Source: Candidatus Falkowbacteria bacterium RIFOXYA2_FULL_47_19 (GTDB taxonomy: Bacteria; Patescibacteriota; Patescibacteriia; Patescibacteriales; UBA12075). From it: a stretch of DNA of 64,000 nt. The position numbers were made by a program, and so were the translations under genes. The stretch is taken from positions 1,249 through 65,248 of the forward strand of contig MFGB01000022.1 of NCBI GenBank assembly GCA_001780275.1, written 5' to 3'. The notes below the pieces were generated by a model, which did not search any database, was not told the DNA's origin, and saw nothing but the letters and a program-made list of their open reading frames with translations. This document shows, one piece after another, positions 3,001-60,660 of this stretch; positions within the stretch are counted from its first letter, which is position 1, and every line of letters begins with the position of its first letter.

Positions 3001-4130
3001 GGACCTAATAAATAAAACTCGGGAGATATGTCGGGAGCGTCGAAAGTATATTCCATGATCATTTCGTCGCCGGCCTTTAAATTGACATCTGAAAATATTA
3101 ATCGCTGTTCATCGTCAGAATTTCCAATTTCCAATTTCCAATTTCCAATTTCCTGATTATCAGCATCCCTTAACTCAGGGTCGATGATCCGAAAATTAAT
3201 TGGCACTATTTCGATTAAATTACCCTCATAATCTTCGTTAGCCTTAACATTAATCTTCATCTTATACTCCGCCTTCGGATTGATCCGGGTCGGGCCTTCG
3301 CGCCTGACAATAAACGGCAGTTCTTTTTTCACTTCTATTTTATCCGTAATCGTCCGCTGGCCGTTGACCGTGTCGGCAATAACCGTAATATTATAAACTC
3401 CGGTATCTTCAAGTTCATAATTAGCGTAATAATCCGGCGTATCAATAATATTATTAAGTCCGCAGGCCGGATTACGGGTAATCGTACCGTCCGCGGTGGA
3501 TAAAACCATCTTGCCCCAGCCCGGCTCGTCTATCTCTATAGTTAAGTCGGCGGTGCAGATCGTATCGCCCTCGTCGTCCAGAACGGCCGCCTGAAGATAG
3601 GCGGTGTCTCCCGGTAAATATAAAGATTGGTCCGGATTGAAAGCCAAAACTCCCCAGAGAAAATCCTGGGTAAAAACTATTTCTTCGCCGCCTGTCATAA
3701 CCGCATCCTTGACCGCAATCCTGACCGTGTGTTTTCCCGGCTTCATCGTTCTTCCGGTTCCGCTCAATTTAACCGAAAATTTCCCGTTCTTATTATAAAT
3801 GACCTCCGGAGTTAAACCGCTCTCCGGTGCGTCAGCCAGCTCGGCCTTGATCTCCGTATTCTTATATTCATCAACTATAACTCCCTTAAAAAACGCGCCT
3901 ACGCCTCCCCAAATACCTCGCTGTTTTTTAAACCTGAATTCCATTTCCGGCGTTTCGTTCACGGCAAAATCGGTTTGTTCGGATTGCAAACTCAGCTCAA
4001 AACCGTCTTTAATATGAATATTTTCGTCGCCGGCCAGAACTTGCCCTGTTCCGAAAAAAACAAAAAACATCGCTGTTGTTAACAGTGTCCATGTTTTTAT
4101 CTGTCTGAATTTTTTGTTTTGGATTTGCAT
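1..4130 (-). CDS. Giant secreted surface protein, N-terminal 1376 codons (3' end lies beyond the left edge); paralog of 5292..12131; contains a glycine-rich domain
   Basis: Absent from the supplied track because it has no stop codon inside the window. My own translation of the minus strand from the ATG at 4130-4128 stays open to position 1: MQIQNKKFRQIKTWTLLTTAMFFVFFGTGQVLAGDENIH... (signal/TM). Blocks FLWGVLAFNPDQSLYLPGDTAYLQAAVLDDEGDTIC, YTFDAPDISPEFYLLGPL and ENRHWQIASD align with the 2279-aa ORF. A Gly-rich stretch (about 695-1390) ends in GGAGGSGIVIVRY. Confidence 0.85.
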   Translation of the reverse strand, partial: MQIQNKKFRQIKTWTLLTTAMFFVFFGTGQVLAGDENIHIKDGFELSLQSEQTDFAVNETPEMEFRFKKQRGIWGGVGAFFKGVIVDEYKNTEIKAELADAPESGLTPEVIYNKNGKFSVKLSGTGRTMKPGKHTVRIAVKDAVMTGGEEIVFTQDFLWGVLAFNPDQSLYLPGDTAYLQAAVLDDEGDTICTADLTIEIDEPGWGKMVLSTADGTITRNPACGLNNIIDTPDYYANYELEDTGVYNITVIADTVNGQRTITDKIEVKKELPFIVRREGPTRINPKAEYKMKINVKANEDYEGNLIEIVPINFRIIDPELRDADNQEIGNWKLEIGNSDDEQRLIFSDVNLKAGDEMIMEYTFDAPDISPEFYLLGPLTAISAQGGSALGWENRHWQIASDNPGAIGHYYKNDNTAYSGALGAGVWAPIAGYQIASTTFTAGKKYLISINFSLNNSNANGNAMAQVLHGATVFADSIHRWESRRTLATYTGHGYQFFTVWTAVAGEDINVQVTSATALTYYATGYQAFVINLSDDLVENTDWYYATSTHSGNLPLNPNWSAGSSITIDGGGNDWMMLGMGHFLIDATETNDFMMRLNNTTDSVAYNQVRYEGEDTLDYRPIVLMTGANIAGTKTWRVEAGVATAASHDWDYSAIFAINLNKFQSHYVGYSTDPVSLAVQNTWYPATTTSFTAKTAGDHLIWSQEVADVAENTKVIQSRLTVDGSSVPNGFPDLRRELPNGVDDENVHHNFYLGSLSQSDHTITAEMRETVDVAGAPSITTHNLVAFSMELKTPPTGSFDSVEQRTDGSGIVDISVEITDNDWDPSRAKLEWATSTDCSDFFSHDPTIDETDANITATYGDPTVYNSSPYQIGDIPTGGITATGGTITEEGGYIVHTFMGDGTFAVESGSGDVEVLIVGGGAAGGTGGTAGRGGGGSGGIVYDDAYAVTAGSYAITVGAGGTPGTTATVGGPGGNTVFDTLTALGGGGAGPHATAGTAGGSGGGGSGYSGEAGGAGNQPGSASGGYGNVGGASYDGGGVAPGRNGGGGGAGAVGQDGLVTGGGNGGDGREYSQFASVGGSPAGWFGGGGGGGASSGYTAGSGGQGGGGAGSSTGVGTAGTDGTGGGGGGSVSTGGAGGSGIVIVRYLAPDPYAHILTNSGLNTVNVDWSSDTDLPAANGETYCLRLTANDFTADQTPLATTTLTIDNTAPSISGIITANLMYAIGDTLRATMTVASEAGNLNIGPGSTINGGAVTNILKADNTTFTVDYTVAPGQTDRATGTIPYSISLVDLYGNKSATSSSNFASGSIDANAPAITSMTAPDLLYGIGDTLTATITVSADADIYSLDTSSINWATSSTGALTKINNTTYTVNYTAA
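2961..2984. repeat. Intragenic palindrome GCCCAAGG-N8-CCTTGGGC
   Basis: 8-bp perfect arms read directly from the sequence. It encodes part of ISAQGGSALGW, just N-terminal of the conserved ENRHWQIASD block. Confidence 0.8.
3119..3153. repeat. Heptamer tandem repeat (AATTTCC)x5 inside the giant ORF
   Basis: Five exact 7-nt units. On the coding strand this is (GGAAATT)n, translated as QEIGNWKLEIGN. Confidence 0.95.
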
Positions 4131-4136
4131 TTGACT

Positions 4137-4172
4137 AAGCCACTCGGTGGCTCTAAGGCCACCGAGTGGCTT
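4137..4172. repeat. REP-like 36-nt palindrome, copy 1 (also the likely terminator of the transposase gene)
   Basis: AAGCCACTCGGTGG-CTCTAAGG-CCACCGAGTGGCTT. It lies between the stop of 4181..4885 and the start of the giant ORF, and shares the 5' flank ACTAAGCC with copy 2. Confidence 0.8.
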
Positions 4173-4180
4173 TATTAGCT

Positions 4181-4885
4181 TTATTCCAACGAATATTTTT
4201 TCAACTCCTCTTTAATCTGTCTAGAATTCTTAATCGTTTCGTTTGCGTATTTCCGATAATCGCCAACGCTATCAAACTCTTTTAAAATAATTTTTTTATC
4301 ACACAAGGCCCCTGCTCGCTTGCCCAAATAATCCGGGTAACTCGACCACTGATAACTTTCCGCTTTAGCGATCCCGTGTATCTCCGCGTTGCCGTTAATA
4401 TAGGCCGAAGCGTACGATAATTGCCAGTCGGAGCTAACAGCGACGGATTTGAATTTTCCCTGAAATAAACAGCCGGAGCGTTTGAATTTTTTATTAAAAT
4501 ATTGAGAATATCCCATCATCAGCTTATGCATATACTTTGATATTCCATTATCAACTTTTTGCTCTAAAAGAAAATGGTAATGATTTGGATTTAAACAATA
4601 AGCGATCAATCTAACTAAGCCACCCGGTGGCTCCGAAGCCACCGGGTGGCTTTCCCTTGCTTTTTCAAAAGCAAACAAACTTCCGATATTCTGTTTACGA
4701 TTAAACTCCCTCATGCTCCTTAAAAACCGCACATAATCCTTTTCATCGCCGAAAATCTCCCGCTTGTCCACGCCGCGATTATAGATATGATAATATTCCC
4801 CTGTCTCAAATTTTACTTTACGCATTTTCTTAAAACCAGATTCGGCCATCCGGCAGTTCTGCAGCGAACCGCCGGATGGCTCCAT
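4181..4885 (-). CDS. RayT/IS200-like Y1 (HUH) transposase family protein
   Basis: YYHIYNRG; HUH motif NPNHYHFLL; GCLFQGKFKS; Tyr region SAYINGNAEIHG; YQWSSY. This is the pattern I recognise from COG1943-type REP-associated tyrosine transposases. The more likely start is the M at 4825 (MRKVKFETGEYYHIY). Confidence 0.75.
   Translation of the reverse strand: MEPSGGSLQNCRMAESGFKKMRKVKFETGEYYHIYNRGVDKREIFGDEKDYVRFLRSMREFNRKQNIGSLFAFEKARESHPVASEPPGGLVRLIAYCLNPNHYHFLLEQKVDNGISKYMHKLMMGYSQYFNKKFKRSGCLFQGKFKSVAVSSDWQLSYASAYINGNAEIHGIAKAESYQWSSYPDYLGKRAGALCDKKIILKEFDSVGDYRKYANETIKNSRQIKEELKKYSLE
4617..4652. repeat. REP-like 36-nt palindrome, copy 2, in frame inside the transposase ORF
   Basis: AAGCCACCCGGTGGCT-CCGA-AGCCACCGGGTGGCTT. 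It differs from copy 1 by a compensatory pair (T..A versus C..G) and encodes SHPVASEPPGGL, upstream of the HUH motif. Confidence 0.85.
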
Positions 4886-4922
4886 CGGCTTTTCTTATTC
4901 TTAACGAATAATAAACTTAACT

Positions 4923-5052: not shown

Positions 5053-5066
5053 TTTTTGCCAACCCT

Positions 5067-5153: not shown

Positions 5154-5213
5154 GGAGAGGCAAATTTAAAATTTCAAATTACCAAAAAATTCTCCATACA
5201 TTTTATACCCGTA

Positions 5214-5241
5214 GCGCAATATCCAATATCTAATATCCAAT
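5214..5241. repeat. 7-nt-phased repeat GCGCAATATCCAATATCTAATATCCAAT (copy 1 of 2)
   Basis: 28 nt identical to 60633-60660. Heptamers CAATATC/CAATATC/TAATATC/CAAT. Intergenic, just 3' of the giant ORF stop. Confidence 0.95.
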
Positions 5242-5291
5242 TTCTGTTTTAAAATTTATTGATCACTGTTTATTGAGCCTACGCCCATAAC

Positions 5292-8200
5292 TTATTCACC
5301 ACCATCGTCGTTGCGCCATCTATAATGCACTTGCTCAACATAAGGAAACCGCACCTGGAAAATATCCGCGTAAGTATCGGAGTCAAAGCGCCCGCTGTCA
5401 TTGCCGCTTATTACCTCTACCGTATAATTCGTAGCGGTCAACGCGAAGGTCTTGTTGAATAAAATTTTAAAATCCAAGGTGCAGGTCGTACCGGCGCAGT
5501 TAGAGTCGCTATTAACCGACAGCTCGGCCGAGTCTAAGGCGTCGGTGCCGATCTCATAAAAAGCATCAGCCGTCTGGTCCCAATAGAATACGAGGTCGCT
5601 AAAAGGCGAAGCGCTGTCTAAATTATCGGCGAGCCGCAAAGTCGTGGAAGCGAGCGCCTGGTAGCCGTTCGTTTCCGACACCACCACCCGGAAATTCCAC
5701 TCCGTGGACGTGCCGGCAATAGCAATATTGCCCGCTTCCGGATTGGTAAAAGTAAGCGCGTCATTACTGACTGTGCTATTTGTCTTTATTGATATCTCGG
5801 ATGAAGTCGCTTTATTGCCGAAAGCGTCGTAAGACCAGATATTAAAATAATACCAGGTATCGGAATCGAGACCGGATACGGTCGTGGAAGAAACGTCGTT
5901 ATAATTATAACTATCTAAGGCCGCGTCGTCATGCTCTAAATTATCACCGACGACGTAATCCACCACCCCGGCCGCGCCTTTTTTGTAAAATATCTTATAC
6001 GCGTTCGTCGCCGGCTCGTTCGTATCGGTCGCGGGCGAGGCCGTATCAAAAATAAGTTTAATGCTATTAATAGTTACCTCGCCCTGAGTTAAAATTCCCG
6101 GCGCGGTCGGATCATAGTTGTCTATTATAAGTGTCACGGTCGTGGCGACGAGCTGATCATCCAGGCCGTCATTCACGGTGAGCCTTAAACAATGCGTGCT
6201 TGACGCGTACGGCTCGTCGGTCTTACCAAACCAATCAAAAGTAATTGTATTAGATCCGGGCGAAGTCAGTATCCAGTGGTCGGAGCTGCTTGTACCTACT
6301 TGATAAGGGTAATTATTATCAATCTCCGCCAGGCCAAAATCACGAGTAACACTCGTCGGGTCTAAAGTCGGGTCAAGTGATTCCGTAAAATCACAGGCCG
6401 CGCCTTCAGCGTACTCTATTTTCGCCCGGCAGGTATCGTCATTATTAGCGTCATCCACTTCAATGGAAATATCCACGATTCCGGAGCCGTCCGTCCTCTG
6501 TCCGATGTTAGCGAGGTTGAACCCACCCAAGGGCGCGTCATTAGTCATAATGTCCACGCGGGTTGAGCTCGCCCGGTTGCCGTTCTCGTCATAAGCCCAG
6601 ATCGCGAAACTGTATGTCGTCTTCGGGGAAAGATTGCCGATCGAAGTGGTTGCGGCAGAAAGAAAAAACTTGTCGCCCAGACTGGGATCACTGGAAGAAC
6701 TGAACACGCTGTCCGCTTCAGTCGGATCTGTGCCGTCGTAAAGCTGATAAAAAATCTTATATTCAACGAAGTTGGTTTCGGTTGTGGTCGCGCCGAAAGC
6801 GAGGGTCGTGGTCGCCCCGGTCCGCGCCGATAAACTTAAAGCCCCGGGCGCGGTCGGATTTTTCGTGTCTATGTAAACGGTCGTCGTGGCCGGAGTCTCC
6901 TGATCTAAATTAAGATCGTTAGCCGTTATCTGAAGACAATAATCTCCCTCCACCGCCCCCAAGCTTTCGCGCGCAGACCAGTCAAAAAATACCGAATTGG
7001 ACCCTGAGGCGGTCACGATATAACCGTCAACCGTGCCGATCTGGTAGGTCTCGCTATTATCAATATACGGGTCGCCCCAGTCGGCCGTAATATTCCCGTC
7101 CGTTTCGTCCAAAACCGGATTGCCGGTGGTAAAAACGCAGGCCGTGCCGGTCGCGAATTCTATCTTGACGCGCAGGTCATGATCGTCCGGATCGTCAACT
7201 TCCAAACCGATATCAACCGTGCCGCTCATATCGGTTTTTTGCGTGGTAGAAGCCGTAATAAACGAACCGGTCGGCGGGCTATTCGTCCAGCCGTAAGTAT
7301 AAATAAGCTGGCCGTTCAGCTTAGCGCCGTCCGTTGCCGTCAATGTAGTATCGTCGGAATAACAAGCGTTATAAGACTGATTATCGGTCGTGTTCAATGA
7401 TGCCGTTACATCTTTATAAAACTCGGAAAAACTGTTAAAATCATCCGGCTCTAATCGGTAATTATTAGTGCAGGTCGGATTTCCGACAGACAAATTTGCG
7501 TCAACATAGTATACTGTACCGGCTGGCACATCCTTGGTGGAATAACTGTTCAAAAAACTTGCCAATAAACCGCCCGCCATGATCTGCTTGCCTGTCGTCT
7601 CCGGCATTACCGATCTCGCCGTCATTGTGGTGGTGCCGGTGATCGGCGACTCCGAAGACTGGCCGCCGAACAAATTAATGCTCGTTAAATAACCGCCCGA
7701 CTCATCTGTGTAAGTATATGTTATCATAAGCTCGGCCGATATTCCTCCGAACGTCGTGGTATTGAAGGTGGTATTAATTTTTACTTCTTTGGCGGTATTG
7801 GCATTAGCGCTTTCTAGTTCGGCATAATCGCTTGCCGGAATTATATGGATAATGTTGTAAGACGGTTTTATGACCGCGCCGTCGCCATTATAAGCATACA
7901 CTAGATTGGGGGTGGTGGTGGCGTTATCTCCGACCTTAGAAGACACGGACACGCTTAAGGCGGCCGTATTCGGATTTTGCGCGATTATCCTGAACCAGGC
8001 GCTCTTGACGCTTACTATGCCCGTACTGGCTCCATTTTCCGGAAAATACACGTTAGTTGAAGCGCTGGAAAGCGAAAGAGTGGCGCCGTTATTTATCACC
8101 CCGATCGGAAAAGAGACGGTTTTGGTTTTTATTGGCGCCGCGGAAGAAGCGATATAGGTTTCCGTCACTTCGCCGCCAAGAGAATAAAAGGTGCCGATAT

Positions 8201-11200
8201 TAAAAAAGTATTCCAACTGTTGCGCGGAATTCTCCGCGTACCCGGAGTTCGCCCAATCCGGATAGTACATCGCCGGCATATTCCCCTGCGCGCTATTTGC
8301 CTCTTCCCAGTGGAAACTGGGGCTGTCTTGGTCGTAATTCTGGATATTAATATTGGGTCTGGCGTCAGTTGTTGTTATGGCGTCATTATTGGCATACATC
8401 GTAAACCACTGCGCCAGCCGGTTTGTCGTAGTGGCCGTCCCAGACCATTCCGGAATTTCCATATTATAATCAAAGACCGGACAGGTGTTGTTCCTGGCGC
8501 AACTGGTATAAACTATGCTCGCCTGTCTGGTGCCGCGATCAGTACCGTTGGTAGAGTCCAGAGGATATATTACCGTATTGGTAATATTCTCCGAATCAGG
8601 ATCGTAAGTATAGGTCAAAATCAAAATCGCGCCAGCGTTAGCGATTGCCATCTTTGTGTTTGTGTTTTTCAGGTGGTAACCGACCTGAGCTTCCATTTCC
8701 GTTCCGCCGCCGGTATAGGCGGCTAATTGCGCCTCGTCTGTTATATCTAAAAGCAATCTGACGAAATTGCTTTCGCCGTTACCTGTGCCGGCGTCATCAT
8801 AAGAAAGAATGTTGGAATTATTTTCCAAAATAGCGCCCGTGCCGCTAAACGGATTTAAAGAACATCCGCCGGTTTCACAGGTGTCAAAACCAAGCCTGTA
8901 TCCGGTATAATCCGTATCGCTGATCACGGTATAAGCTTCGTATTGGGATTCAAAAATAATATACGCGTTTTTTATATCAACGCCCGTTTCCGCGAGTTTG
9001 AATTTAAAACTGGAAAAAGTATAATCCTGGTTCGTGTTTTGTCCGGTATTACCTCCGGCGGAATCATCGTTCCATGTTCCCGCCTGGAACATAACCGTCC
9101 GCGCCCGCTTGCGGACCGCGTCCGAAGCGATCTGCCAGCGGCGATTCTCAGAAGCTGAGCTTCCAATTGGAAGCTCAGCTTCTTTTAACGCCAGAGGCCC
9201 AACCAAATACAATTCCGGCGACCGGTCCGGCGCGTCGAACGTATAGCTTATTTCCAGCTCATCACCCGCGAAAATTTCCACATCCTGCCAAACCAATTTT
9301 TTCACCCCATCCTCTTCTATTTCGTAATACTTGTAGTTCGCACCGTACGGATCACGTCCGTCCGTATTCGACATTCGAAAATCGACATTCGAAATTTTGA
9401 ATCCCGTCGGCACAGATTCAACAATATCCCCCTTAAAATCTTCTCCCGGCTTAACAACAATCCTAAACCCATAGTCCGCCTTCGGCCAAATTCTGGTCGG
9501 GCCCAGGCGCTCTATATCGAACAAACGCTCCTCGGCGACGACTATCGTCTCTCTTATCTCTTTCTCTCCTGTCCGCATCGTAAATTCGTACTCGCCCGCC
9601 TCGCTGAAAACATAACGAACGTAATAATCCGGCTCGCTCGTCACCGTTTCCGGCCCGCACTGTTCGCTTAATTTTATGCCGCCGTTTTCGACCGTCAGCG
9701 TCTCGTCAATTCGTAATTCGTAATTCGTAATTCGTAATTCGGCGGCCGCGCCGCAAACCGTATGTCCGGATTCATCCAAAACTGCCATCTGGATATAAGC
9801 TTCTTCACTCGGGACATACATAGATTTATTAAAATTCATGGCCAGAACCCCCCAGGAAAAATCCTGCATTAACTCGAATTCTTCCACTTCCTCGCCGGAC
9901 CGGTCCGTGATATAGAACTTAACCGAATATTTTCCCGGTTTAAGTTTATCCGAAATTTCCGGCAATTTGATCGTAAATTCCCCGCCCTCGTCAAAGATCA
10001 AGGTCAAAGGATAATCGACTGCCGCGCCCGAGCTGTCGACTAGTACGGCCCGGATATCGACGTTTCTCCAGAAGTCTCCGAGGCCGATCATCTCGCCTAA
10101 AGTGTCCCAGATCCGATTCTCGTTCTTTTTGTATTTAAATATCATCTCCCCCTCTTCGTTAACACTGAAAGTTAATTGATCAGAAAGCAGGGTCAAAGCC
10201 TCTTCCCAGCGTTTTCTCTTCTCTAGCATATCAAGCTCGTCTTCGCTCTCGTATTCCGCCTCCACCCAGACGCTGTCCAAATAAGCAATAAATTCTATCT
10301 CTTCGTTAACCACGCCCTCGAATTTCAATTTTAAATTGCGGACATCGTCCCAATTCTCCAAAAAATCAGCTTTGTAACCGAAATAGCCATTATTAACGGC
10401 ATTCGACAAATTATCAGCAGTTAAAATATCTAATTGCTGCCAAATTTGATTGTCTTCCCCCGCTTCATCCTCTGTGGTGCTGGCGTTATCAAGCGAATAC
10501 CAGATAATAATCTTCGCGTTCTCCCGCAAAAATCCATTTTCCGCTAAAGCAGTTTTAGGCGCTGCTAAAATCCGATACAGATCAAAAAGCGTCAGCGGTT
10601 CAACACCGGTCTCATCCATAACCGGATCTTCATCTTCGTCATTTGTAATTCGTAATTCGTCATTCGTTATTAATTCGTCTTCGTCTTCTGTTATCTCTAT
10701 GGTTGGAGCGTTTTCCTCTGCCGGAGAAATATCGCCGCCGAAATTCGTAATTAGTAATTCGTTATTTTTACCCGCCGACTTGTCCGCCGACGCTTCATCC
10801 GTAGCCGGTTCTTCGTTTTCGTTATTCGACATTCGAAAATCGCCATTCGAAATTCCCATCTCCGGCACCAAAAACCCGTCATTAAGATCTATCACCTCCA
10901 CCACGCCTTCATCCGTCAAAACCTCGGAGTTTACCGGCGTTTCTTCCGGCGTTTCCCCACCGCTAGCATCTACTTCGTTATTACTCTCAATTTCTTCTTC
11001 ATCGGCCACGGCCCCCTCAGAAGATTCGCCGTCTTCGTCATTCGTCATTCGAAAATCGCCATTCGAAATTCCCGCTCTCCCTCCGGCCAGAGAAAATTTT
11101 ATCTTAGCGCCCGTGAATTTTCCTAAGTCTTCCAGGGTATCGATATTCTCGTTCGTTACCTCGTCGGCCAGAACCTCGCCGGCGTAAACTGCCGGAGTGC

Positions 11201-12131
11201 TTAAGAATTTTTTTGCCTCTCCGAACCAGGACACTTCTTCCATCTCAAGTTCCGCGTCAATGCCAATTTCAGTTTCGGCGGTTTCGGCGGAAGGCTCGTC
11301 AACCGCGCCGGTTTCCGGTTCCGTTGCGTTTACGCTCTCTTCCGATATAACATCGATCTCATCTTCCGTTTCGCCATTGCCGTCGTTTTCCGTTTCCGTC
11401 ACATCCACCGTACCGGCCCCATCCGTCCCGCTCTCATCAATAATTTCTACAACAGCCTCATCGGCAACCGTGTTCGCGCCATCATCATCGCCGTCCGATT
11501 CTTCCGGCGCCGTCTCGGGATTATTTTCGATTATTTCCGTAATTATATCTTCAACGCTTTCTTCCCGCTCTGAACTCGCATCTTCATCCATAATAACTCC
11601 GTTCTCCTCATAATTTCCGTTTTCTTTTTCATCTTCAGGCGCCAACGTATCCTGATCATCGCCAGATTCATCTATTTGAGCCTCCGGAGCCGGCTCGCTC
11701 TTTATGAACATGAACTCTCCGCAAACCAAACTATAATTCCCGCCAGAATAAAAAGCCGAATTAGTGTCGTTAAAAGCTAAAGCATCTTCCTCCGGCCCGG
11801 CCTCGGGCTCGCCTTGGGCTTTGTCCGCGTTCCACCATCCTTCCCTATAATTTTCCGATATAAATCCGGGCGCGCACTCGCCCGCGTACAGATCGATGGT
11901 CTTAGTATTATTATTTAAGGCCCGGGTCATGTTCCGGAAAATATTCCAGGGAGAAATTCCCGTGAGCAAACAGGCTAAAACCAATGCCCCGAAAACAAAA
12001 CGCCAGCCCCTCGGGATACACTTAAGTATCTTATATGGGCTGGCAATACCGAAGGAATCCGATTCCTTCGCAAGGAATCGAATTCCTTGTCTTTTGATAA
12101 AATTAAAATATTTTCTATTTTTAGCAAGCAT
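5292..12131 (-). CDS. Giant surface protein (2279 aa): TM anchor, acidic low-complexity region, FN3-like repeats
   Basis: ORF track. N-terminal TM FVFGALVLACLLTG; a D/E-rich region of about 450 aa; a central part paralogous to 1..4130; C-terminal FN3-like units (PTAPGALSLSARTGATTTLAFG..YKIFYQ; PTAPGILTQGEVTINSIKLIF..YKIFYK). Confidence 0.9.
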   Translation of the reverse strand: MLAKNRKYFNFIKRQGIRFLAKESDSFGIASPYKILKCIPRGWRFVFGALVLACLLTGISPWNIFRNMTRALNNNTKTIDLYAGECAPGFISENYREGWWNADKAQGEPEAGPEEDALAFNDTNSAFYSGGNYSLVCGEFMFIKSEPAPEAQIDESGDDQDTLAPEDEKENGNYEENGVIMDEDASSEREESVEDIITEIIENNPETAPEESDGDDDGANTVADEAVVEIIDESGTDGAGTVDVTETENDGNGETEDEIDVISEESVNATEPETGAVDEPSAETAETEIGIDAELEMEEVSWFGEAKKFLSTPAVYAGEVLADEVTNENIDTLEDLGKFTGAKIKFSLAGGRAGISNGDFRMTNDEDGESSEGAVADEEEIESNNEVDASGGETPEETPVNSEVLTDEGVVEVIDLNDGFLVPEMGISNGDFRMSNNENEEPATDEASADKSAGKNNELLITNFGGDISPAEENAPTIEITEDEDELITNDELRITNDEDEDPVMDETGVEPLTLFDLYRILAAPKTALAENGFLRENAKIIIWYSLDNASTTEDEAGEDNQIWQQLDILTADNLSNAVNNGYFGYKADFLENWDDVRNLKLKFEGVVNEEIEFIAYLDSVWVEAEYESEDELDMLEKRKRWEEALTLLSDQLTFSVNEEGEMIFKYKKNENRIWDTLGEMIGLGDFWRNVDIRAVLVDSSGAAVDYPLTLIFDEGGEFTIKLPEISDKLKPGKYSVKFYITDRSGEEVEEFELMQDFSWGVLAMNFNKSMYVPSEEAYIQMAVLDESGHTVCGAAAELRITNYELRIDETLTVENGGIKLSEQCGPETVTSEPDYYVRYVFSEAGEYEFTMRTGEKEIRETIVVAEERLFDIERLGPTRIWPKADYGFRIVVKPGEDFKGDIVESVPTGFKISNVDFRMSNTDGRDPYGANYKYYEIEEDGVKKLVWQDVEIFAGDELEISYTFDAPDRSPELYLVGPLALKEAELPIGSSASENRRWQIASDAVRKRARTVMFQAGTWNDDSAGGNTGQNTNQDYTFSSFKFKLAETGVDIKNAYIIFESQYEAYTVISDTDYTGYRLGFDTCETGGCSLNPFSGTGAILENNSNILSYDDAGTGNGESNFVRLLLDITDEAQLAAYTGGGTEMEAQVGYHLKNTNTKMAIANAGAILILTYTYDPDSENITNTVIYPLDSTNGTDRGTRQASIVYTSCARNNTCPVFDYNMEIPEWSGTATTTNRLAQWFTMYANNDAITTTDARPNINIQNYDQDSPSFHWEEANSAQGNMPAMYYPDWANSGYAENSAQQLEYFFNIGTFYSLGGEVTETYIASSAAPIKTKTVSFPIGVINNGATLSLSSASTNVYFPENGASTGIVSVKSAWFRIIAQNPNTAALSVSVSSKVGDNATTTPNLVYAYNGDGAVIKPSYNIIHIIPASDYAELESANANTAKEVKINTTFNTTTFGGISAELMITYTYTDESGGYLTSINLFGGQSSESPITGTTTMTARSVMPETTGKQIMAGGLLASFLNSYSTKDVPAGTVYYVDANLSVGNPTCTNNYRLEPDDFNSFSEFYKDVTASLNTTDNQSYNACYSDDTTLTATDGAKLNGQLIYTYGWTNSPPTGSFITASTTQKTDMSGTVDIGLEVDDPDDHDLRVKIEFATGTACVFTTGNPVLDETDGNITADWGDPYIDNSETYQIGTVDGYIVTASGSNSVFFDWSARESLGAVEGDYCLQITANDLNLDQETPATTTVYIDTKNPTAPGALSLSARTGATTTLAFGATTTETNFVEYKIFYQLYDGTDPTEADSVFSSSSDPSLGDKFFLSAATTSIGNLSPKTTYSFAIWAYDENGNRASSTRVDIMTNDAPLGGFNLANIGQRTDGSGIVDISIEVDDANNDDTCRAKIEYAEGAACDFTESLDPTLDPTSVTRDFGLAEIDNNYPYQVGTSSSDHWILTSPGSNTITFDWFGKTDEPYASSTHCLRLTVNDGLDDQLVATTVTLIIDNYDPTAPGILTQGEVTINSIKLIFDTASPATDTNEPATNAYKIFYKKGAAGVVDYVVGDNLEHDDAALDSYNYNDVSSTTVSGLDSDTWYYFNIWSYDAFGNKATSSEISIKTNSTVSNDALTFTNPEAGNIAIAGTSTEWNFRVVVSETNGYQALASTTLRLADNLDSASPFSDLVFYWDQTADAFYEIGTDALDSAELSVNSDSNCAGTTCTLDFKILFNKTFALTATNYTVEVISGNDSGRFDSDTYADIFQVRFPYVEQVHYRWRNDDGGE
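9150..9183. repeat. Perfect 34-nt palindrome inside the giant ORF
   Basis: AGAAGCTGAGCTTCCAA|TTGGAAGCTCAGCTTCT, with no mismatch. It encodes EAELPIGSSAS, immediately N-terminal of ENRRWQIASD. Confidence 0.95.
9366..9396. repeat. 7-nt-phased repeat, subfamily A (ATTCGACATTCGAAAATCGACATTCGAAATT)
   Basis: ATTCGA/AATCGA boxes at offsets 1, 8, 15 and 22. Translated as ISNVDFRMSN. Confidence 0.9.
9708..9741. repeat. Heptamer tandem repeat (AATTCGT), about 4.9 units
   Basis: Exact 7-nt units at 9708, 9715, 9722, 9729 and 9736. Translated as ELRITNYELRI. Confidence 0.95.
10639..10679. repeat. Degenerate heptamer repeat (ATTTGT/ATTCGT boxes)
   Basis: Boxes are 7 nt apart at 10641, 10648, 10655 and 10662. 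Translated as ELITNDELRITNDE. Confidence 0.8.
10742..10766. repeat. Heptamer repeat AATTCGT/AATTAGT/AATTCGT
   Basis: Three 7-nt units. Translated as NELLITNF. Confidence 0.85.
10824..10854. repeat. 7-nt-phased repeat, subfamily A
   Basis: ATTCGACATTCGAAAATCGCCATTCGAAATT. Translated as ISNGDFRMSN. It has 1 mismatch to 9366-9396. Confidence 0.9.
11040..11070. repeat. 7-nt-phased repeat, subfamily A
   Basis: ATTCGTCATTCGAAAATCGCCATTCGAAATT. Translated as ISNGDFRMTN. Confidence 0.9.
12051..12089. repeat. Twin 19-nt palindromes in the 5' coding region of the giant ORF
   Basis: GAAGGAAT-CCG-ATTCCTTC, then CAAGGAAT-CGA-ATTCCTTG (20-nt offset). Translated as LAKESDSFGI. Confidence 0.85.
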
Positions 12132-12325
12132 GGGGATGCTTTAAAAGATGAATGTTAAATTCAGAATGCAGAATACGCCGCATTTTATCATTTCAACCGA
12201 AGGGAGAAATCTATAATATGCGATTAATAGCATTAACGCTGTATTATAGATCTCTCGGCTTCGCCTCGAGATGACAAAAACAAAATTTTGACTTCACGAA
12301 AGCTCTAAAATTAAGGCGCGGAAGA

Positions 12326-17157: not shown

Positions 17158-17877
17158 CTAACGATAATATGCCAAGAACTTGACCCTCTCCACATAATTC
17201 CTGGTCTCCCGAAAAGGCGGAATGCCGTCATATTTCATGACGTTTCCCGGACCGGCATTATAAGCCGCCAAGGCCCGGTCCAGATCGGAGAATTTTTCCA
17301 GCTGCAACCTTAAATATCTGGCGCCACCGCCGATGTTGTCCGCCGGATTGTCGATATTTTTAACTCCCATGGCTCTGGCGGTCGCGGGCATTAGCCCCAT
17401 CTCTCCACGAGCGCCCCGGGAAGAAACGAGGTTGCGCTCATCCCATTCGACGGCAATCATGGCCGCGATGATCCGCGGATCAACGCCGTGAGCGCGGGCG
17501 GCGCGCTCTATCTCTTTCCGGTATTTAACGCCCACCCTTTCTATTAAATCTATTTTTCCGTTCCTAACGGCCCAGCTTTCCAGTTTTTTCTCCGCTGTCT
17601 CGCTTAAAACGACAGTGTTCCTGATTTCCGTTTCCGTCCCGATCCGTCCCGATCCGTCCCGGCAGCCGGCAAGAATATTTTCATAATTTAAAAATAAAAC
17701 GGACAAACTCGAAATATAACGCGGTTCCGCGCAACGAGTAAGAGTGCTTAAATACGCCGACGGAGCTTCCCGATAGGCTCGATACGCGGCCAAAAGCAGG
17801 ATAGACAGAAATAAATAAATTATAACAAAAATCAAGACCACAAAACCGTAAAAAATCTTAACATTGATTTTAACCAT
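17158..17877 (-). CDS. Membrane-anchored lytic transglycosylase (SLT domain)
   Basis: N-terminal TM. GEMGLMPATARAMGV, ADNIGGGARYLRLQL and AAYNAGPGNV match the SLT/goose-lysozyme-type motifs. Confidence 0.8.
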   Translation of the reverse strand: MVKINVKIFYGFVVLIFVIIYLFLSILLLAAYRAYREAPSAYLSTLTRCAEPRYISSLSVLFLNYENILAGCRDGSGRIGTETEIRNTVVLSETAEKKLESWAVRNGKIDLIERVGVKYRKEIERAARAHGVDPRIIAAMIAVEWDERNLVSSRGARGEMGLMPATARAMGVKNIDNPADNIGGGARYLRLQLEKFSDLDRALAAYNAGPGNVMKYDGIPPFRETRNYVERVKFLAYYR

Positions 17878-21260: not shown

Positions 21261-21267
21261 ACTTTTC

Positions 21268-25680: not shown

Positions 25681-25762
25681 AATTACAAATCCACAAATCA
25701 GAACACAAATTCACAAATGCTATATTTGTGTTATTTGTGATGAAATTTGTGAATTTGTAATA
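25681..25762. promoter_or_regulatory. 82-nt imperfect palindrome built from ACAAAT/ATTTGT boxes, upstream of the rpsA start
   Basis: The left arm has 4 ACAAAT boxes (25685, 25693, 25705, 25713) and the right arm has 4 mirrored ATTTGT boxes. It begins 34 nt from the rpsA start codon. Confidence 0.55.
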
Positions 25763-28979: not shown

Positions 28980-29020
28980 TTTTTTCGATTATATAAAAAC
29001 AACCCCTTGATTATCGATTA

Positions 29021-29058
29021 AAACCAACAACCCGTTCCATTAAAGCGAACGGGTTGTT
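29021..29058 (-). terminator. Terminator of the lipoprotein gene
   Basis: AACAACCCGTTC-N9-GAACGGGTTGTT (12-bp stem). Confidence 0.75.
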
Positions 29059-29081: not shown

Positions 29082-29104
29082 GACAAATCGACAATCGAAA
29101 ATCC
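29082..29104. repeat. 7-nt-phased repeat (ATCGA boxes)
   Basis: GACAAATCGACAATCGAAAATCC. Boxes at 29087, 29094 and 29101. It sits between the stop codon and the terminator. Confidence 0.75.
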
Positions 29105-37400: not shown

Positions 37401-40067
37401 GACGCCATCAAGATCAAAGACGATTTCACCATAGAAAAAATCGCTTCCCCGGAAGTTGAACAGGCCGCTCTAGCCGGCCTGATCAAGAGTTTGCTCGATA
37501 GTTGTGTTCATGGCGCTATCATGATTAAAGACAATTTCAGCCTATCGCCGGAAAAACTCGTCTCCCCCGAGGTAGCGCATACCGCTCTAGCCAGCCTAAT
37601 CAATTGTTTGCGCGGAGACCATATTCATGATGCTATCATGATTAAAAAAAATTTCAGCCTATCGCCGGAAAATTTAGAACAAGCCGCCCTAACTATGTTT
37701 ATTCACCACTTGTCCGAAGGCCATGCTGATAGTGTTATCCAGATTAAACATAATTTCCCAATTTCCTCGGAAAACCTCAGCTCCCTAGAAACTGAACAAG
37801 CCGCTTTAAAAGGATTAACTATACTTTTATCATATGGAGATATTAATAAGGCCGTTATGATTAAAGATCATTTCGCCATTTCACCGGAAAAATTAGAGTA
37901 TGCCGCCTTAAAGGGTTTGATCGGTCGTTTATCAGAAGGCCATATCAATGACGCTCGGAAGATTGGAAATATATTTAATGTTTTAACTGAAGAAAAAATT
38001 CGAAATGCCTTTTTAAATCCCAGTCCTCAAAACAGAAAACTGATAGAATTTTTTGGCGCGATTACAAGCGAAGAAGAAAGAAAAAAAATGAGCCAAGAAC
38101 TGGGAATCAAAATGGAGGCCCTGCTTTATAACGGCTACGCAAAGTATAATAAAATTTCTTCCCGCAACGAAAGAAACGATCTTATACAGAACTTCACCCG
38201 AAAGATAAGCGAATCGATTGAATCCGGATCAGACACAAAAACATTTAACAAACTAGTCTCTATTATCAAGGAATTGGATAATCAGAGAAACAACGACGAG
38301 CAATCTACGGCGGATTTTCTTTTTGAAGTTTCCAAAAATATTTCCGGAAAACTGGATGATAAGCAATTTTTAATTTTAGTTCGAAAACTTTCGGAAATCA
38401 AGGATCAAAAAGCTAATTTTTTTGCTTTGCGCCTAGCGGGCCAGTCCCGGGTAAAACCGCTGGCATTCGCGCGTTCCATGCAAAAACTTTCGGATAATGG
38501 TTTTGTTCCAAAGGCGATCACTAAATTCATAGTTGAAGAAAAAGAAGAAAAAAAACAGCCTAGTCAAGAAAAGATCGCCGTTCTTCAGAAAATTATCAGT
38601 GAATACCCCAACCAATTTTCCACCATTATTTCAACCCTTTCGGACCCTAGGTTTGCCGATTTTGATCTGGCGGAAGAAAAAGAGTTGGTTTTTTCCAGCC
38701 TCAAGGATTTTAAAGCCGTCACGCCGATTATTTTCGAACGTTATCGTAATGCCGGCGAAGAAGGAAGAAAAAAACTGGTTGAAAAAATCAATCGAATTAA
38801 ACCGATATTATTCAAAAATCAATCAATAAAAAATATTCTTTCGGGCCAAGACCAGGAAATTTTCACTGAAATGATATACATCGCCTATAGTCCAGTAGGC
38901 ATGAGTTTTCAGGAAGTCGAAAATTTATTGGAACAAGTAGAGGATAGAACCCAAGATTTAGCGAAATTTAAATTTCCGGAAGACGGCTATGATTTTTCCT
39001 TTAACGACAAAACTAGATATCGTGTTAAACCGGGTGAAATGATTAATCCGCAAGTTTTAGATAAAGTTTCCGGTATTTTTTCCGGAACTTATCCTAAAAA
39101 TGAAGACGAGATCAAAAAGATATCAAGTGTTGTTGCAAAATTAGCCAAGGGGGGAACGGACCTGAAAGACTCCGAAATCACCGCTCTTCTTTCGCTGCTT
39201 TCCGAGGAAGGCCAAATTAAGGATTTTAAATCAAAAACCGCGAAAAACAAAGCCAACATCCGGTTATTTTTGGGAGAAGCTAAGGAAAATTTGGGTGTCT
39301 TTTTTAACGATAATTTTCCCAGATTACTTGAACAATTTTTATCGGCCAATCCGCAGTCTAAAGAAAAAATAGAAGCGATATTAGCTCATCCCGAAAGAGT
39401 GGACTTTATCAAAAATAAGATAGAGAAGCAGATCAAAGATAAAAATCTACAGATTGACTGGAATGATCCCAGCCAGATCGTTTCCGCCTATTTTTCGCTT
39501 TCCTGTTTAAAAAAAATAAAACAAGAAATATCAAAAGAAACTAAAAAATACGAATTAGCGCCGGAAGGAGAAGGTGAAAGATCGAAATTAACCGATTCCA
39601 GTTTCAGGGCTTATATTTCTAAAAACGTCGGTTCATTTTTCGCCAAGGCTTCAGCCGGAATTTGTACGGCGCAAGACGTATCGCTTTTCAACCGCAAAGA
39701 ACATTTTCATATTAACATTGTGGAAAACAGCGAAACTGTCCAGGCAAATATTCAGGCTTATATTATCAACTACCCGCCGGACAAAAAATCTCTTTTTTTA
39801 CGCGGCTTCAATCCAAATACGAAATTCATGAAAAACATCAGCATCCCGGTTTTTTGCGACAAGGTAATAGAGGTTGCTAAGAAATTTCAGCGCGACAACG
39901 GTTTGTCCGGTGTCTATCTTTCCGAACAATTGGGCAGTTGGCATGCTTTATCCAACCGATCGGAGGTGGCTGCTTATCTATCAAGATATTTAAAATCAGA
40001 TAACCAAAAAGACTTTTCGTATGCCATCACGAGCGCTCAGCGGATCAGCAAGATGTACGAAGTATAG
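34428..40067 (+). CDS. Giant repeat protein (1879 aa): acidic N-terminus, about 25 alternating 39/34-aa helical repeats, non-repetitive C-terminal domain of about 700 aa
   Basis: ORF track. Repeat consensus: ISPEKL(ASPEVE)QAALxGLIxxLSxGxIxxAIxIKxNFx. Confidence 0.85.
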   Translation: MPNLEQNWNRAEINKVAGQEMLEGEEEYRREESGRKEFGNRYWNDEDVDLMYGNDRDFESGYEMHEMIYDREMQTLDDCLNRGNFDGAEHILKHYKDVENIISVLKNVIVNYVFVSKDQYESFIAGLSDFLNQNKISKKKKLNFSIAKFLNSPELEELICDRWNEDYYDDSGNDDYYDDNENENATIASVIKNLNIPAAKKEKIALKVVKEQLIKGNIPYTRKLKEDFPVHSKDFDFNEVEDAALKGLINFLSENNLRSIDRIIKYSIISPEKLASPDVIQAALTGLINCLSAGYIDCAINIKDYFALPPEKLEQAAENCLTKHLLNNNIYYAIEIKDNFIISPEKLASPEIEQAILNNLVKNLLEGNIDTAIKIKDSFAISAEKLATPELEQAALSGLIKCLSEGYVDTAIKIKNNFTISPEKLEQAALSGLIDDLSRGYIDRAFKIKDSFAISAEKLATPELEQAALSGLIKCLSEGHINNAIEIKNDFTISPEKLEQAALTGLARQLSKGNIETVMSIKNNFLISPEKLATPGIEKAALQAIISQLLEGYINDAIKIKDNFTISPEKLEQAAITFLCDHLSKGHIDYAIKIKDNFTISPEKIQEADQPALSAIINELQKSCVSNAIKIKDKFKISPEKLATPKVEKAALQDLTAQLLAGYIKDAIHIKNNFPVSPEKLEQAALTGLIKQLSKGRISDASTIKDNFPVSPEKLDSPEVERAALTGLISELSNDHVDRAVKIKNCFPISPEKLDLAAIAEITNKLSTGHIDYAIQIKDNFMISPKKIATPEIEQAALTGLIRQLSNGYIEHAVRYKNNFTIAPENLEQTALTSLIGHLSNGKLGYAIDIKKDFTLSPEKLASPEVEQAALTSLADCLRDGQIENAFKISENFPISPEKLEQAALAGFKHQLSINRITNAFLIKKNFTIAPEKIEQAALAGLINGLSEGDTFNTSKIKDSFTIAPEKLASPEVEQAALAGLTKSLQECRVNDAIKIKDDFTIEKIASPEVEQAALAGLIKSLLDSCVHGAIMIKDNFSLSPEKLVSPEVAHTALASLINCLRGDHIHDAIMIKKNFSLSPENLEQAALTMFIHHLSEGHADSVIQIKHNFPISSENLSSLETEQAALKGLTILLSYGDINKAVMIKDHFAISPEKLEYAALKGLIGRLSEGHINDARKIGNIFNVLTEEKIRNAFLNPSPQNRKLIEFFGAITSEEERKKMSQELGIKMEALLYNGYAKYNKISSRNERNDLIQNFTRKISESIESGSDTKTFNKLVSIIKELDNQRNNDEQSTADFLFEVSKNISGKLDDKQFLILVRKLSEIKDQKANFFALRLAGQSRVKPLAFARSMQKLSDNGFVPKAITKFIVEEKEEKKQPSQEKIAVLQKIISEYPNQFSTIISTLSDPRFADFDLAEEKELVFSSLKDFKAVTPIIFERYRNAGEEGRKKLVEKINRIKPILFKNQSIKNILSGQDQEIFTEMIYIAYSPVGMSFQEVENLLEQVEDRTQDLAKFKFPEDGYDFSFNDKTRYRVKPGEMINPQVLDKVSGIFSGTYPKNEDEIKKISSVVAKLAKGGTDLKDSEITALLSLLSEEGQIKDFKSKTAKNKANIRLFLGEAKENLGVFFNDNFPRLLEQFLSANPQSKEKIEAILAHPERVDFIKNKIEKQIKDKNLQIDWNDPSQIVSAYFSLSCLKKIKQEISKETKKYELAPEGEGERSKLTDSSFRAYISKNVGSFFAKASAGICTAQDVSLFNRKEHFHINIVENSETVQANIQAYIINYPPDKKSLFLRGFNPNTKFMKNISIPVFCDKVIEVAKKFQRDNGLSGVYLSEQLGSWHALSNRSEVAAYLSRYLKSDNQKDFSYAITSAQRISKMYEV
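35230..37980 (+). repeat. Intragenic tandem repeat array (about 25 units, mean about 110 nt)
   Basis: Counted from the translation. A 99-nt block at 35547-35645 recurs at 35766-35864 with 1 mismatch (219-nt offset, which is one long plus one short unit). Confidence 0.9.
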
Positions 40068-59563: not shown

Positions 59564-59597
59564 CCGGCAAACCCGCCGGTTTTTTATTTCCCGGAGT

Positions 59598-60566
59598 TCA
59601 CAGGATAAGCATATACAAACCAGTTCCGACCAGCGTCGCGCCGATCAATTTCTGGAGCATTACTCCGCCGCCCAATTCCTCTTTAAGATAGCGCGGATAA
59701 CGGGTCGACAAAAAGAAAACGATCACTATCAAAAACATATATTGCGCTCCCTGGAGAGAATTTACCAGGGCTACGTTGCCCAGGGAGATCGCCCAGTTAA
59801 GCATGATGAACGCTAAGGCGGCCAAAACCCTTACCCCCAGAAAGAAGCCCATGTTTTTAGGTGTTTTCGCTCCCCGCTGATGATCAACTATGTTACGGCG
59901 CCAATCCGGAATGAAAAGTATTAAAAGCGCTCCCAAAAAACTTCCCACCCGCGACCAGACGAAACTGCCGATAAACGGCTGGTTAAGATAGATATATTTT
60001 ATAAGAACGTAATAGCCGGCGAAAAAAAGAGCCGAGGTAACCGAGTTCGTGAGCAGACGCCGGGTCGGGCGGTAAGCGGCGTGTATGCCGCCCAGGACAT
60101 CGCCGAAAATATTTTTAAAGCGGTTCATGACCTCGGGGATCAGATATATCCGGGTACGTTTGATTGAAATCAGGATGCCGCCGTTTATCAGTATGAAAAA
60201 AGCCAGAAGCTGCCGCTCACCTAAAGATTCGCCCAAAAAAATATAAGAGAAGATGAAGCTGAATATGGGCACGAGCGCCCCGACGATCGGCACGACCCGC
60301 GTCGCCTCGGATTGGTGCAGGGCTTTATACCAAAAAACCAGTGTCGCCAAAAACAGCATTCCGGCCAAAAGATCGATCATGAGCTCCCTTAGATCCGGCG
60401 TCCAGGGATCGAATGCCAATATAACCAGGTTGAATATGCTCCAAATACCGACATAAAAAGCGTAGGTAATGGAGGAATGGATCTTTTTGGACAATAAAAA
60501 CTTATCGGCGACATAAACGCCGGCATTAATGGAGTAAGCGGCAATAGCTACTAATAACCATGTCAT
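59598..60566 (-). CDS. Polytopic membrane protein (EamA/DMT-like, tentative)
   Basis: About 10 TM in two halves. The family assignment is by general appearance only. Confidence 0.45.
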   Translation of the reverse strand: MTWLLVAIAAYSINAGVYVADKFLLSKKIHSSITYAFYVGIWSIFNLVILAFDPWTPDLRELMIDLLAGMLFLATLVFWYKALHQSEATRVVPIVGALVPIFSFIFSYIFLGESLGERQLLAFFILINGGILISIKRTRIYLIPEVMNRFKNIFGDVLGGIHAAYRPTRRLLTNSVTSALFFAGYYVLIKYIYLNQPFIGSFVWSRVGSFLGALLILFIPDWRRNIVDHQRGAKTPKNMGFFLGVRVLAALAFIMLNWAISLGNVALVNSLQGAQYMFLIVIVFFLSTRYPRYLKEELGGGVMLQKLIGATLVGTGLYMLIL

Positions 60567-60632
60567 AATAACGTATATTGGATATTAAATATCAGCTAGC
60601 TGAAATATTTTGCGCGGAAAATTACATCCGTT

Positions 60633-60660
60633 GCGCAATATCCAATATCTAATATCCAAT
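60633..60660. repeat. 7-nt-phased repeat GCGCAATATCCAATATCTAATATCCAAT (copy 2 of 2)
   Basis: Identical to 5214-5241. It overlaps the last codons and the stop (60649-60651) of the GH1 gene. Confidence 0.95.

Follow-up and report, generated by a model that had tools for sequence, protein, structure and literature searches.

Heptanucleotide tandem tracts in a Candidatus Falkowbacteria contig and other Patescibacteria: reading in frame, rapid turnover and unit-number alleles in a giant surface-protein gene

Phase variation via simple repeats, heptanucleotide units included, is well known in Haemophilus and other pathogens. Contingency loci built on simple sequence repeats occur in Haemophilus, Neisseria and Campylobacter, and units of 7 nucleotides (nt) are found in the hmw1A and hmw2A promoters of H. 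influenzae and in neuO of E. coli K1. Rickettsia palindromic elements (RPEs) are dispersed, palindromic elements of ~100-150 bp that add a segment, in frame, to genes including housekeeping genes; the small dispersed repeats of cyanobacteria are a further analogue for repeats that may be mobile. Here, we focus on a family of tandem heptamers in a 64,000-nt stretch of contig MFGB01000022.1 of Candidatus Falkowbacteria bacterium RIFOXYA2_FULL_47_19, termed the window, and on its counterparts in other Patescibacteria.

Heptamers are reported to be over-represented among bacterial simple repeats, and polymerase slippage is the proposed cause (Mrazek 2007, as cited in PMC4692102). The families described include the short tandemly repeated repetitive (STRR) sequences of the cyanobacteria Calothrix and Nostoc, (GGGAATC)n of Xanthomonas and (GGGGAYT)n of Nostoc; according to the same source there is no detailed literature on heptameric repeats, and the families are G-rich and intergenic (PMC4692102). 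Tandem repeats are also described from Borgs, archaeal extrachromosomal elements, where they are perfect, evolve fast and create disordered regions in open reading frames (ORFs; PMC9879509). The tracts in the window form a heptanucleotide microsatellite family, but an AT-rich one from another phylum, mostly intragenic and read in frame at protein sites that recur. They are probably slippage-driven microsatellites, for the most part tolerated passengers, among which perfect tracts would be hypermutable and one tract, at 9708-9741, would serve as an on/off switch.

The window was scanned for self-identity at lags corresponding to periods 4-15, with 16 of 18 matches needed and low-complexity sequence left out. 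Period 7 yielded eight tracts and each of the other periods 0-2, and 0.0 period-7 tracts were found in 20 dinucleotide-preserving shuffles of the window. An earlier reading of this DNA (the original prediction) had proposed such an autocorrelation scan, and period 7 proves to be the sole enriched period in the window. No period-7 tract occurred in 50 kb of E. coli K-12 or in 50 kb of the AT-rich phage T4, which were used as controls. Perfect tracts of at least three copies and at least 34 nt exist in the window at period 7 only, and there are two: (AATTTCC)x5 at 3119-3153 and (AATTCGT)x4.9 at 9708-9741. All 12 heptamer loci of the original prediction exist. Tandem Repeats Finder reports a period-7 array at each except 10742-10766, which was recovered by the lag-7 scan with a lag-7 identity of 0.83. 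Three extra short tracts lie beyond these 12, and the window total is 8-14 tracts in 64 kb, all tandem and 19-41 nt in length. The tracts, and one hairpin discussed with them, are as follows; arrays in brackets are those of Tandem Repeats Finder.

1961-1979: extra short tract, (AACCGTC)x2.7.
3119-3153, minus strand: coding-strand repeat (GGAAATT)x5, perfect and read in frame within a giant surface-protein ORF, peptide EIGNWKLEIGN; no variation among 8 contigs (3119-3153, (AATTTCC)x5.0, 100% matches).
5162-5180: extra short tract.
5214-5244, minus strand: intergenic GATATTG/GATATTA, ~4.4 units, 3' of the stop (5292) of an ORF of 2279 amino acids (aa) and upstream of a gene resembling a repetitive extragenic palindrome (REP)-associated tyrosine transposase (RAYT); invariant in 10 contigs (5217-5241, CAATATC x3.6).
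9366-9396, minus strand: imperfect period-7/14 TCGAATG/TCGATTT in the 2279-aa ORF, peptide ISNVDFRMSN; invariant in 9 contigs (9366-9396).
9708-9741, minus strand: perfect (ACGAATT)x4.9, in frame in the 2279-aa ORF, peptide ELRITNYELRI; unit number varies (9703-9741, x5.4, 96%).
10635-10672, minus strand: imperfect ACGAATT/ACGAATG, ~5.4 units, located towards the acidic N-terminus encoded by the 2279-aa ORF, containing ...ITNDELRITNDE...; invariant in 9 contigs (10635-10671).
10742-10766, minus strand: imperfect ACGAATT/ACTAATT, ~3.6 units, in the 2279-aa ORF; invariant in 8 contigs.
10824-10855, minus strand: period-7/14, TTTCGAATGGCGAT x2, in the 2279-aa ORF, peptide GISNGDFRMSN; invariant in 9 contigs (10824-10855).
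11030-11070, minus strand: period-7/14, in the 2279-aa ORF, peptide GISNGDFRMTNDE; invariant in 11 contigs (11042-11068).
25682-25761, minus strand: long hairpin within the spacer that precedes the S1 gene, folding free energy (dG) -43.5 kcal/mol, z -7.2; absent from the original prediction.
28903-28936, minus strand: GGCAATC/GAAAATC, ~4.9 units, lag-7 identity 0.70 (28904-28929, GATTGCC x3.7).
29082-29104, minus strand: weak TCGATTG/TCGATTT, ~3 units, right after the stop (29106-29108) of a thioredoxin/DsbA-like gene (29085-29103, x2.7, the weakest of the listed loci).
54705-54730, minus strand: extra short tract, GGTCAAA x3.7, where two minus-strand ORFs overlap; nearly identical in contig L101.
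58671-58700, minus strand: TCGAATG, ~4.3 units, in frame in a Wzy_C (O-antigen-ligase family) ORF at 57813-59351, peptide NLRMSNVEYRK; invariant in 9 contigs (58673-58697, x3.6).
60572-60663, minus strand: GATATTG array at 60633-60663 with an inverted copy at 60572-60597, forming a hairpin stem of ~23 bp (60636-60663, CAATATC x4.0).

The Tandem Repeats Finder arrays at 9366-9396, 10824-10855 and 11042-11068 have period 7/14, with consensus ATTCGAA/TCGCCATTCGAAAA. The giant ORF that holds the 3119-3153 tract runs on the minus strand from ~4070 to beyond the left end of the window and measures 5297 aa in contig L002. The 2279-aa ORF (5292-12131, minus strand) carries six in-frame tracts. Eight tracts had been placed inside ORFs, and all eight are in frame in minus-strand ORFs: one in the giant ORF, six in the 2279-aa ORF and one in Wzy. 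The peptides EIGNWKLEIGN, ELRITNYELRI and ISNGDFRMSN are read from the ORF translations just as claimed, and ISNVDFRMSN is read there as well.

Unit-number change was sought among contigs that are nearly clonal with the window. The proteins of the window have exact matches in near-identical Rifle aquifer metagenome contigs and in the metagenome-assembled genomes (MAGs) GCA_001778255.1 and GCA_001778165.1, while the closest named homologues belong to Candidatus Falkowbacteria, Parcubacteria and the Patescibacteria group. In ~225 kb of contigs 99.5-100% identical to the window there are three indels only. Two of them, of -7 nt and -14 nt, both fall in the tract at 9708-9741; the third, of 124 nt, lies in an unrelated 62-nt repeat. 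The five-unit, in-frame allele of 9708-9741 is present in at least 10 assemblies. Further alleles were sought in a collection of metagenome contigs, with both flanks and a variable gap and with one exact flank plus the tract, and neither scan had a match; these contigs are evidently absent from that collection. A four-unit allele is carried by contig L003 (ERZ27254807), in which the gene is split into 809 and 1485 aa, and a three-unit allele by L107 (ERZ27254750, a 99.7% strain), in which it is split into 803 aa and a remainder. Five, four and three units are thereby found, at contig level, among contigs that are 99.7-100% identical. At contig level, the polymorphism that the original prediction had proposed to look for is seen at this tract, and its point that one unit more or fewer puts the gene out of frame is directly confirmed by the -7 and -14 nt alleles, both of which split the 2279-aa ORF.

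The tract at 9708-9741 resembles a contingency locus in that a repeat whose unit is not a multiple of 3 lies in the gene of an envelope protein, and unit-number alleles, seen at contig level, put that gene in or out of frame. Unlike contingency loci, the family contains only one varying tract, the tracts have 3-5 units and most copies are imperfect. Many tracts of the relatives lie in housekeeping genes, and no out-of-frame states (frameshifted genes at tracts) were found in 80 relatives' loci. Restriction to surface or host-interaction genes, a mark of contingency loci, is lacking: tracts are in giant surface proteins and Wzy in the window, but in relatives TrmD, QueA, an RsuA/RluB-like synthase, a methyltransferase and GH1 have them too. 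The original idea of contingency tracts in surface proteins is supported at 9708-9741, with its 5/4/3 units and split gene, and fails as a general account, the other tracts being invariant, free of frameshifts and in part located in housekeeping genes.

At a larger evolutionary distance the tracts stay in place and the units change. The Wzy genes of the window and of L101 (~83% nucleotide identity) carry ACGAATG TCGAATG TCGAATA and CCGATCT TCGATCT TCGATTT, respectively, at the same site and with the same length. In the 2279-aa giant protein, compared between the window and L121 (~80% identity), GAATTAC x4 at the 9708 site corresponds to GAAATTA x4, and TTTCGAA/TGTCGAT at the 9366 site corresponds to TTGGAAA x3, that is (GGAAATT)x3. 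The replacement unit GGAAATT is also the unit at the homologous site of a paralogue. Tract length is kept between orthologues in Wzy and at the first giant-protein site, and the second giant-protein site is 18 nt longer in the orthologue. Since these ~80-83% identical orthologues, a comparison also suggested in the original prediction, keep the site and change the unit, the tract turns over far faster than its flanks.

The reading of heptamers in genes follows from simple arithmetic. Three units amount to 21 nt, or seven codons, so a tract of at least three units is read in all three phases and gives a peptide with a period of seven residues; a stop codon in any phase means that the orientation concerned cannot occur in an ORF. 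The unit AATTGGA is read as NWKLEIG, AATTACG as NYELRIT, AATTTCG as NFEFRIS and AATTACA as NYKLQIT. These very peptides occur in distant Wzy homologues (45-66% identity), where they align at three fixed positions. Tract density is 0.48 per kb in Wzy and 0.07 per kb in the surrounding DNA, and the Wzy tracts cluster at relative positions 0.12-0.20, 0.42-0.52 and 0.83-0.89. The same three clusters appear among 120 Wzy homologues at the protein level, with 35 lag-7 runs of at least 4 residues against 0-8 for other lags. In an AlphaFold model of the window Wzy (predicted template modelling score 0.82), the tract positions fall in short inter-helix loops, and the tract at 58671-58700 corresponds to a short loop between predicted helices. 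The tract loops of Wzy are rich in K and R, and by the positive-inside rule they would therefore face the cytoplasm.

Recurrence at fixed sites is seen in other proteins. An S4/PseudoU_synth_2 pseudouridine synthase (RsuA/RluB-like) has tracts at one site in six relatives, and tracts are present in TrmD (two relatives), QueA, a methyltransferase and GH1. Homologues of the giant protein were searched for with residues 560-1000 of the 2279-aa protein. Its MG2-like domain contains a tract site at which other homologues show a native consensus, L.L.I.N, and at the first giant-protein site the homologues have either this native strand or another heptamer-type peptide, at equal length. A 7-residue insertion at the tract, suggested by pairwise BLAST, vanishes in multiple alignment. 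When the unit number was altered by 1-2 units in either direction at 34 noncoding tracts, no hidden long ORFs were revealed, bar trivial read-through at gene ends.

Heptamer tracts extend beyond this window and are a property of this entire Patescibacteria lineage. In a sample of 80 loci (1.03 Mb) around Wzy homologues of different Patescibacteria genomes, there are 124 period-7 tracts and 69 period-14 tracts, against 0-9 for the other periods and ~1 in simulated sequence; period 14 is also high because 14 is a multiple of 7. At least one tract is present in 40 of the 80 loci, and the tracts are 3-5 units long with a maximum of 7. The GC content of the units is 20%, compared with 38% for the genomes. 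An AATT core is found in 60% of units, where 9.7% would be expected for random 7-mers and 18% for GC-matched 7-mers (a 3.3-fold excess over the latter); TTAA occurs in 20% of units, and ATAT or TATA in 6%. The share of units with the AATT core is 64% in coding and 50% in noncoding tracts. The remaining 40% of units lack AATT, and unit sequences are very diverse. Open frames of at least 150 codons contain 88 of 122 tracts (72%) and make up 80% of the DNA, so tracts are almost as frequent inside genes as outside. A scan of viral contigs for (GGAAATT)x4 matched a single contig.

Several of these properties are held in common with the heptamers of the STRR type and those of Xanthomonas and Nostoc. 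Both consist of tandem 7-nt units at many dispersed loci, are over-represented relative to other unit lengths, and have a lineage-specific consensus with variants, for example (GGGANTN)n in the described families and the AATT core here. The described arrays mostly have ~4 units, close to the 3-5 units of the present tracts. In both, some inverted pairs are able to form hairpins, and length and sequence differ between close species. The described families are G-rich, some of them capable of forming G-quadruplexes, whereas the units here are AT-rich with an AATT core. They are also described as intergenic, whereas 72% of the tracts in the Patescibacteria sample fall within ORFs, where they are read in frame, and tracts return to the same positions of conserved proteins; in the window, 8 of the 12 listed tracts are in ORFs. 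The repeats of Borgs, as described in PMC9879509, are likewise rapidly evolving, locally arising tandem repeats that make new peptide segments in ORFs, and are set apart by that description through their archaeal host elements and disordered regions; here the unit is 7 nt and a change of a single unit breaks the frame.

These results are best accommodated by slippage. The arrays would arise and turn over locally, through strand slippage in replication or repair that adds or removes 7-nt units; a variant unit would then take over the whole array, while the flanks stay conserved. Inside genes, only stop-free orientations and frame-preserving states would survive, in permissive loops and strands. 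The tract at 9708-9741 would behave as a phase-variation-type switch of the 2279-aa putative cell-surface protein. Directly observed are the periodicity, its spread over the lineage, the reading in frame, the unit-number alleles with their frameshifts and the fast turnover of units at fixed sites; the slippage mechanism, the reversibility of the switch and any benefit that it confers are inferred. A local origin is consistent with a comparison of units among the relatives, in which 17.6% of unit pairs within genomes and 20.3% of pairs between genomes are within one mismatch (permutation p = 0.82).

A number of observations weigh against this account. Plain slippage leaves the AATT core unaccounted for (60% against 18% expected, in noncoding tracts too), and it gives no ground for a unit of 7 over units of 6 or 9, which would be harmless in genes. 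Tracts stand at the same sites in relatives that are only 40-50% identical, and they replace sequence at equal length, which needs compensating deletions or a conversion-like process. The common non-repeat flank of the tracts at 5214 and 60633 looks like duplication and not like independent slippage. Only one of ~14 tracts varies; the others, including the perfect tract at 3119, show no change of unit number in 4-13 contigs each. The alleles come from assembled contigs and not from reads, and some of the assemblies may have raw data in common.

The AATT core, the preference for 7 nt, the replacement at constant length and the lasting tract sites underlie a different, rather improbable proposal: the tracts would not be ordinary slippage products but would be left by a sequence-specific process, found in Patescibacteria alone, through which preferred sites are time and again overwritten with heptamer arrays centred on AATT. 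A dedicated polymerase, a nickase, a repair pathway or selection for mutability itself may be responsible. The AATT core and the persistence of tract sites do point to a lineage-specific feature of replication or repair. If real, such a process would overwrite the loops of conserved proteins at constant length and keep hypermutable sites across deep divergence, and it would be a phylum-wide generator of loop and on/off diversity in minimal genomes.

It is unlikely that the tracts are mobile or templated mini-elements that a dedicated enzyme, or gene conversion with master copies as the source, has copied into new sites, in frame too. Such copying would explain why the tracts at 5214 and 60633 have in common a 42-nt block that includes a 14-nt non-repeat flank (TTGCGCNACGG), and why the 14-nt double unit TTTCGAATGGCGAT is found at both 10824 and 11042, with a variant at 9368. 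It would also fit the change of orthologous sites to a wholly different unit, with GGAAATT matching the homologous site of the paralogue, and the in-frame tracts in housekeeping genes, which resemble RPEs as short repeated DNA that is tolerated as an extra or altered peptide in functional genes. However, no terminal structures, target duplications or net insertions were found. Unit sharing within genomes, the mark expected of a master template, does not exceed the level between genomes, and the polymorphism that is observed is a change in unit number, the signature of slippage. The comparison with RPEs, raised in the original prediction, therefore fails: the tracts are tandem arrays (21-35 nt; 21-41 nt at most) without palindromy, not palindromes of 100-150 nt, a separate inverted copy to pair with exists for just some of the intergenic tracts, and units are not genome-specific. 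At the corresponding sites orthologues and paralogues have a different tract or the native L.L.I.N strand at equal length, with no discrete insertion.

The position of the 5214 tract next to a RAYT-like gene also speaks for mobility. This gene (4181-4885, minus strand) encodes an IS200-like Y1 transposase, and AGCCACYSGGTGGCT doublets lie just 3' of it (4138-4171) and inside the ORF (4618-4651). The motif is matched 8 times where 0.05 matches are expected, and the rest of the window has none. Dispersed palindromes matching the RAYT flanks, as expected of REPs and of the REP doublets termed REPINs, are not found, and a RAYT/REP origin of the heptamers was rejected: AGCCACYSGGTGGCT differs from the heptamer units and is confined to the RAYT-like gene. 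The heptamer family thus lacks the defining features of RPE-like and of REP/RAYT elements, and shows features of contingency loci at one locus only.

A regulatory reading turns on the tracts at gene boundaries. The original prediction had assigned the tracts outside ORFs to leaders or 3' untranslated regions, which holds with adjusted details. The tract at 28903-28936 lies most likely in the 5' leader directly upstream of the ATG (28897) of a PolB-exonuclease-like gene, and is within an ORF only under a mechanical TTG start. That at 29082-29104 comes right after a stop, and is followed at ~29020-29055 by a hairpin and then a T-run. As had been noted, the tract at 60633 overlaps the 3' end of the GH1 gene, 60633-60663 covering stop-proximal codons of the ORF 60649-62244. 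The hairpin at 60572-60663 ends ~10 nt before the start codon of the EamA gene and has a dG of -32.9 kcal/mol (z -4.1 against shuffles). The orthologous GH1/EamA spacer of L101 (8590-8795) has an unrelated sequence, yet it forms a hairpin with heptamer-like arms (dG -55.4, z -5.7). In the hairpin at 25682-25761 the arms contain recurring CACAAAT-like motifs with weak periodicity (lag-7 identity 0.45-0.50). Predicted sigma-70 promoter sites are no more numerous around the 60633 element than in shuffled sequence, and a promoter reading of the common 42-nt block was dropped, its hexamers being wrongly spaced.

It is plausible that these intergenic tracts and hairpins would have a structural or regulatory function, and boundary hairpins formed by a tract and its inverted copy might act in termination, RNA stability or translation control. 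Binding arrays for a heptad-reading factor, one of three options between which the original prediction did not choose, may apply to the intergenic tracts. As an account of the whole family, it is likewise unlikely that the tracts are functional cis-elements, whether binding sites for a DNA or RNA factor that reads AATT every 7 nt or hairpins for termination, stability or translation, with the genic copies as by-products. The excess of AATT extends to noncoding tracts, and tracts stand directly before a start, directly after a stop and overlapping a stop (one each). The two window hairpins and that of L101 are far stabler than shuffles, and several relatives have CATAACN tracts immediately ahead of Wzy. 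These points are to be set against the weak noncoding preference of the tracts (72% of them in ORFs that make up 80% of the DNA), the great diversity of units, of which 40% lack AATT, and unit sequences that are not conserved even in close orthologues; no candidate factor was identified.

The CATAACN-type tract directly upstream of the Wzy start was seen in L021 (2821-2847), L026 (9975-10000), L045 (8143-8174) and L081 (2057-2077). This leader array is C/A-rich and has no AATT core.

Selection at the protein level, under which (AATTNNN)n would be favoured for encoding an amphipathic strand-turn (N-hydrophobic-polar-hydrophobic-x-I-x) in membrane and surface loops, is very improbable. In Wzy, TrmD, the pseudouridine synthase and the MG2-like domain, tract peptides do return to the same loops or strands, and the native L.L.I.N consensus of the MG2-like domain resembles the tract peptide. 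The DNA repeats, however, are perfect with synonymous positions included, and the same units and AATT bias are present in noncoding DNA, where the sample already points to equal tract density; the peptides moreover vary widely in charge and composition. Finally, an assembly or sequencing artefact, suggested by the origin of both variant alleles in MEGAHIT re-assemblies (k141 contigs) of single samples and named in the original prediction as a way to overturn it, can practically be dismissed: identical tracts occur in many independent assemblies (ENA, JGI, NCBI, Logan), half of the 80 unrelated MAG loci (40) have tracts, deletions of exactly 7 and 14 nt are atypical of sequencing errors, and a 34-nt tract is shorter than the assembly k-mer and so cannot collapse.

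The heptamer tracts have several consequences for the biology of these organisms and for work on their genomes. Members of the Candidate Phyla Radiation (CPR)/Patescibacteria are mostly uncultured epibionts with tiny genomes, in which surface variation towards hosts and phages is largely unexplored, and the literature searched contains no earlier report of such heptamers or tract peptides in Patescibacteria. The alleles at 9708-9741 are evidence, at contig level, that a CPR organism varies a giant surface-protein gene between on and off states by means of repeats, for which the literature searched has no precedent in this group. More generally, a 7-nt microsatellite can be nearly as common in genes as outside them and can write 7-residue-periodic peptides into conserved enzymes. 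In practice, such tracts bear on split or 'pseudogene' calls in MAGs, they create low-complexity segments that disturb homology searches, and they are a possible sequence signature for binning CPR DNA.

Other repeats and compositional features occur in the window. Its first 2000 nt (1-2000) have 59% GC, compared with ~45% elsewhere, and code for a stretch, rich in glycine, of the giant protein at the left end (Gly_rich_2 in the full-length gene); spurious proline-rich ORFs lie on the other strand of this GC-rich region. A third giant ORF (34428-40067, plus strand, 1879 aa) contains tandem repeats of 117, 219 and 111 nt with 73-82% identity, at 35424-36239 and 37296-37672; these belong to the repeat architecture of the protein and have no relation to the heptamers. 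An SLT-domain ORF (17158-17877, minus strand) contains a perfect 10-nt repeat, (TCCGTCCCGA)x2.9, at 17633-17661; like 7, this unit length is no multiple of 3, and the repeat is invariant in 4 contigs.

The 62-nt repeat that accounts for the only non-heptamer indel lies at 54020-54227 (x3.4, 98% identity) and overlaps the 3' end of a transfer RNA gene, tRNA-Ser(CGA), at 54207-54296 (minus strand). Its unit resembles the 3' portion of a tRNA interrupted by a ~37-nt GC-rich hairpin, and in contig L012, near-identical but from a different sample, the repeat is shorter by two units (-124 nt). An Rfam scan of the window returned only tRNAs and 16S ribosomal RNA (rRNA); three tRNAs are present, and a 16S rRNA gene is included with its 5' part. 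At 63096-63245 and 63522-64000, ~350 nt upstream of the start of the 16S rRNA gene, the sequence is AT-rich, partly of period 7 and palindromic (TAATAAT/TAATATT), and this region is largely conserved in L101.

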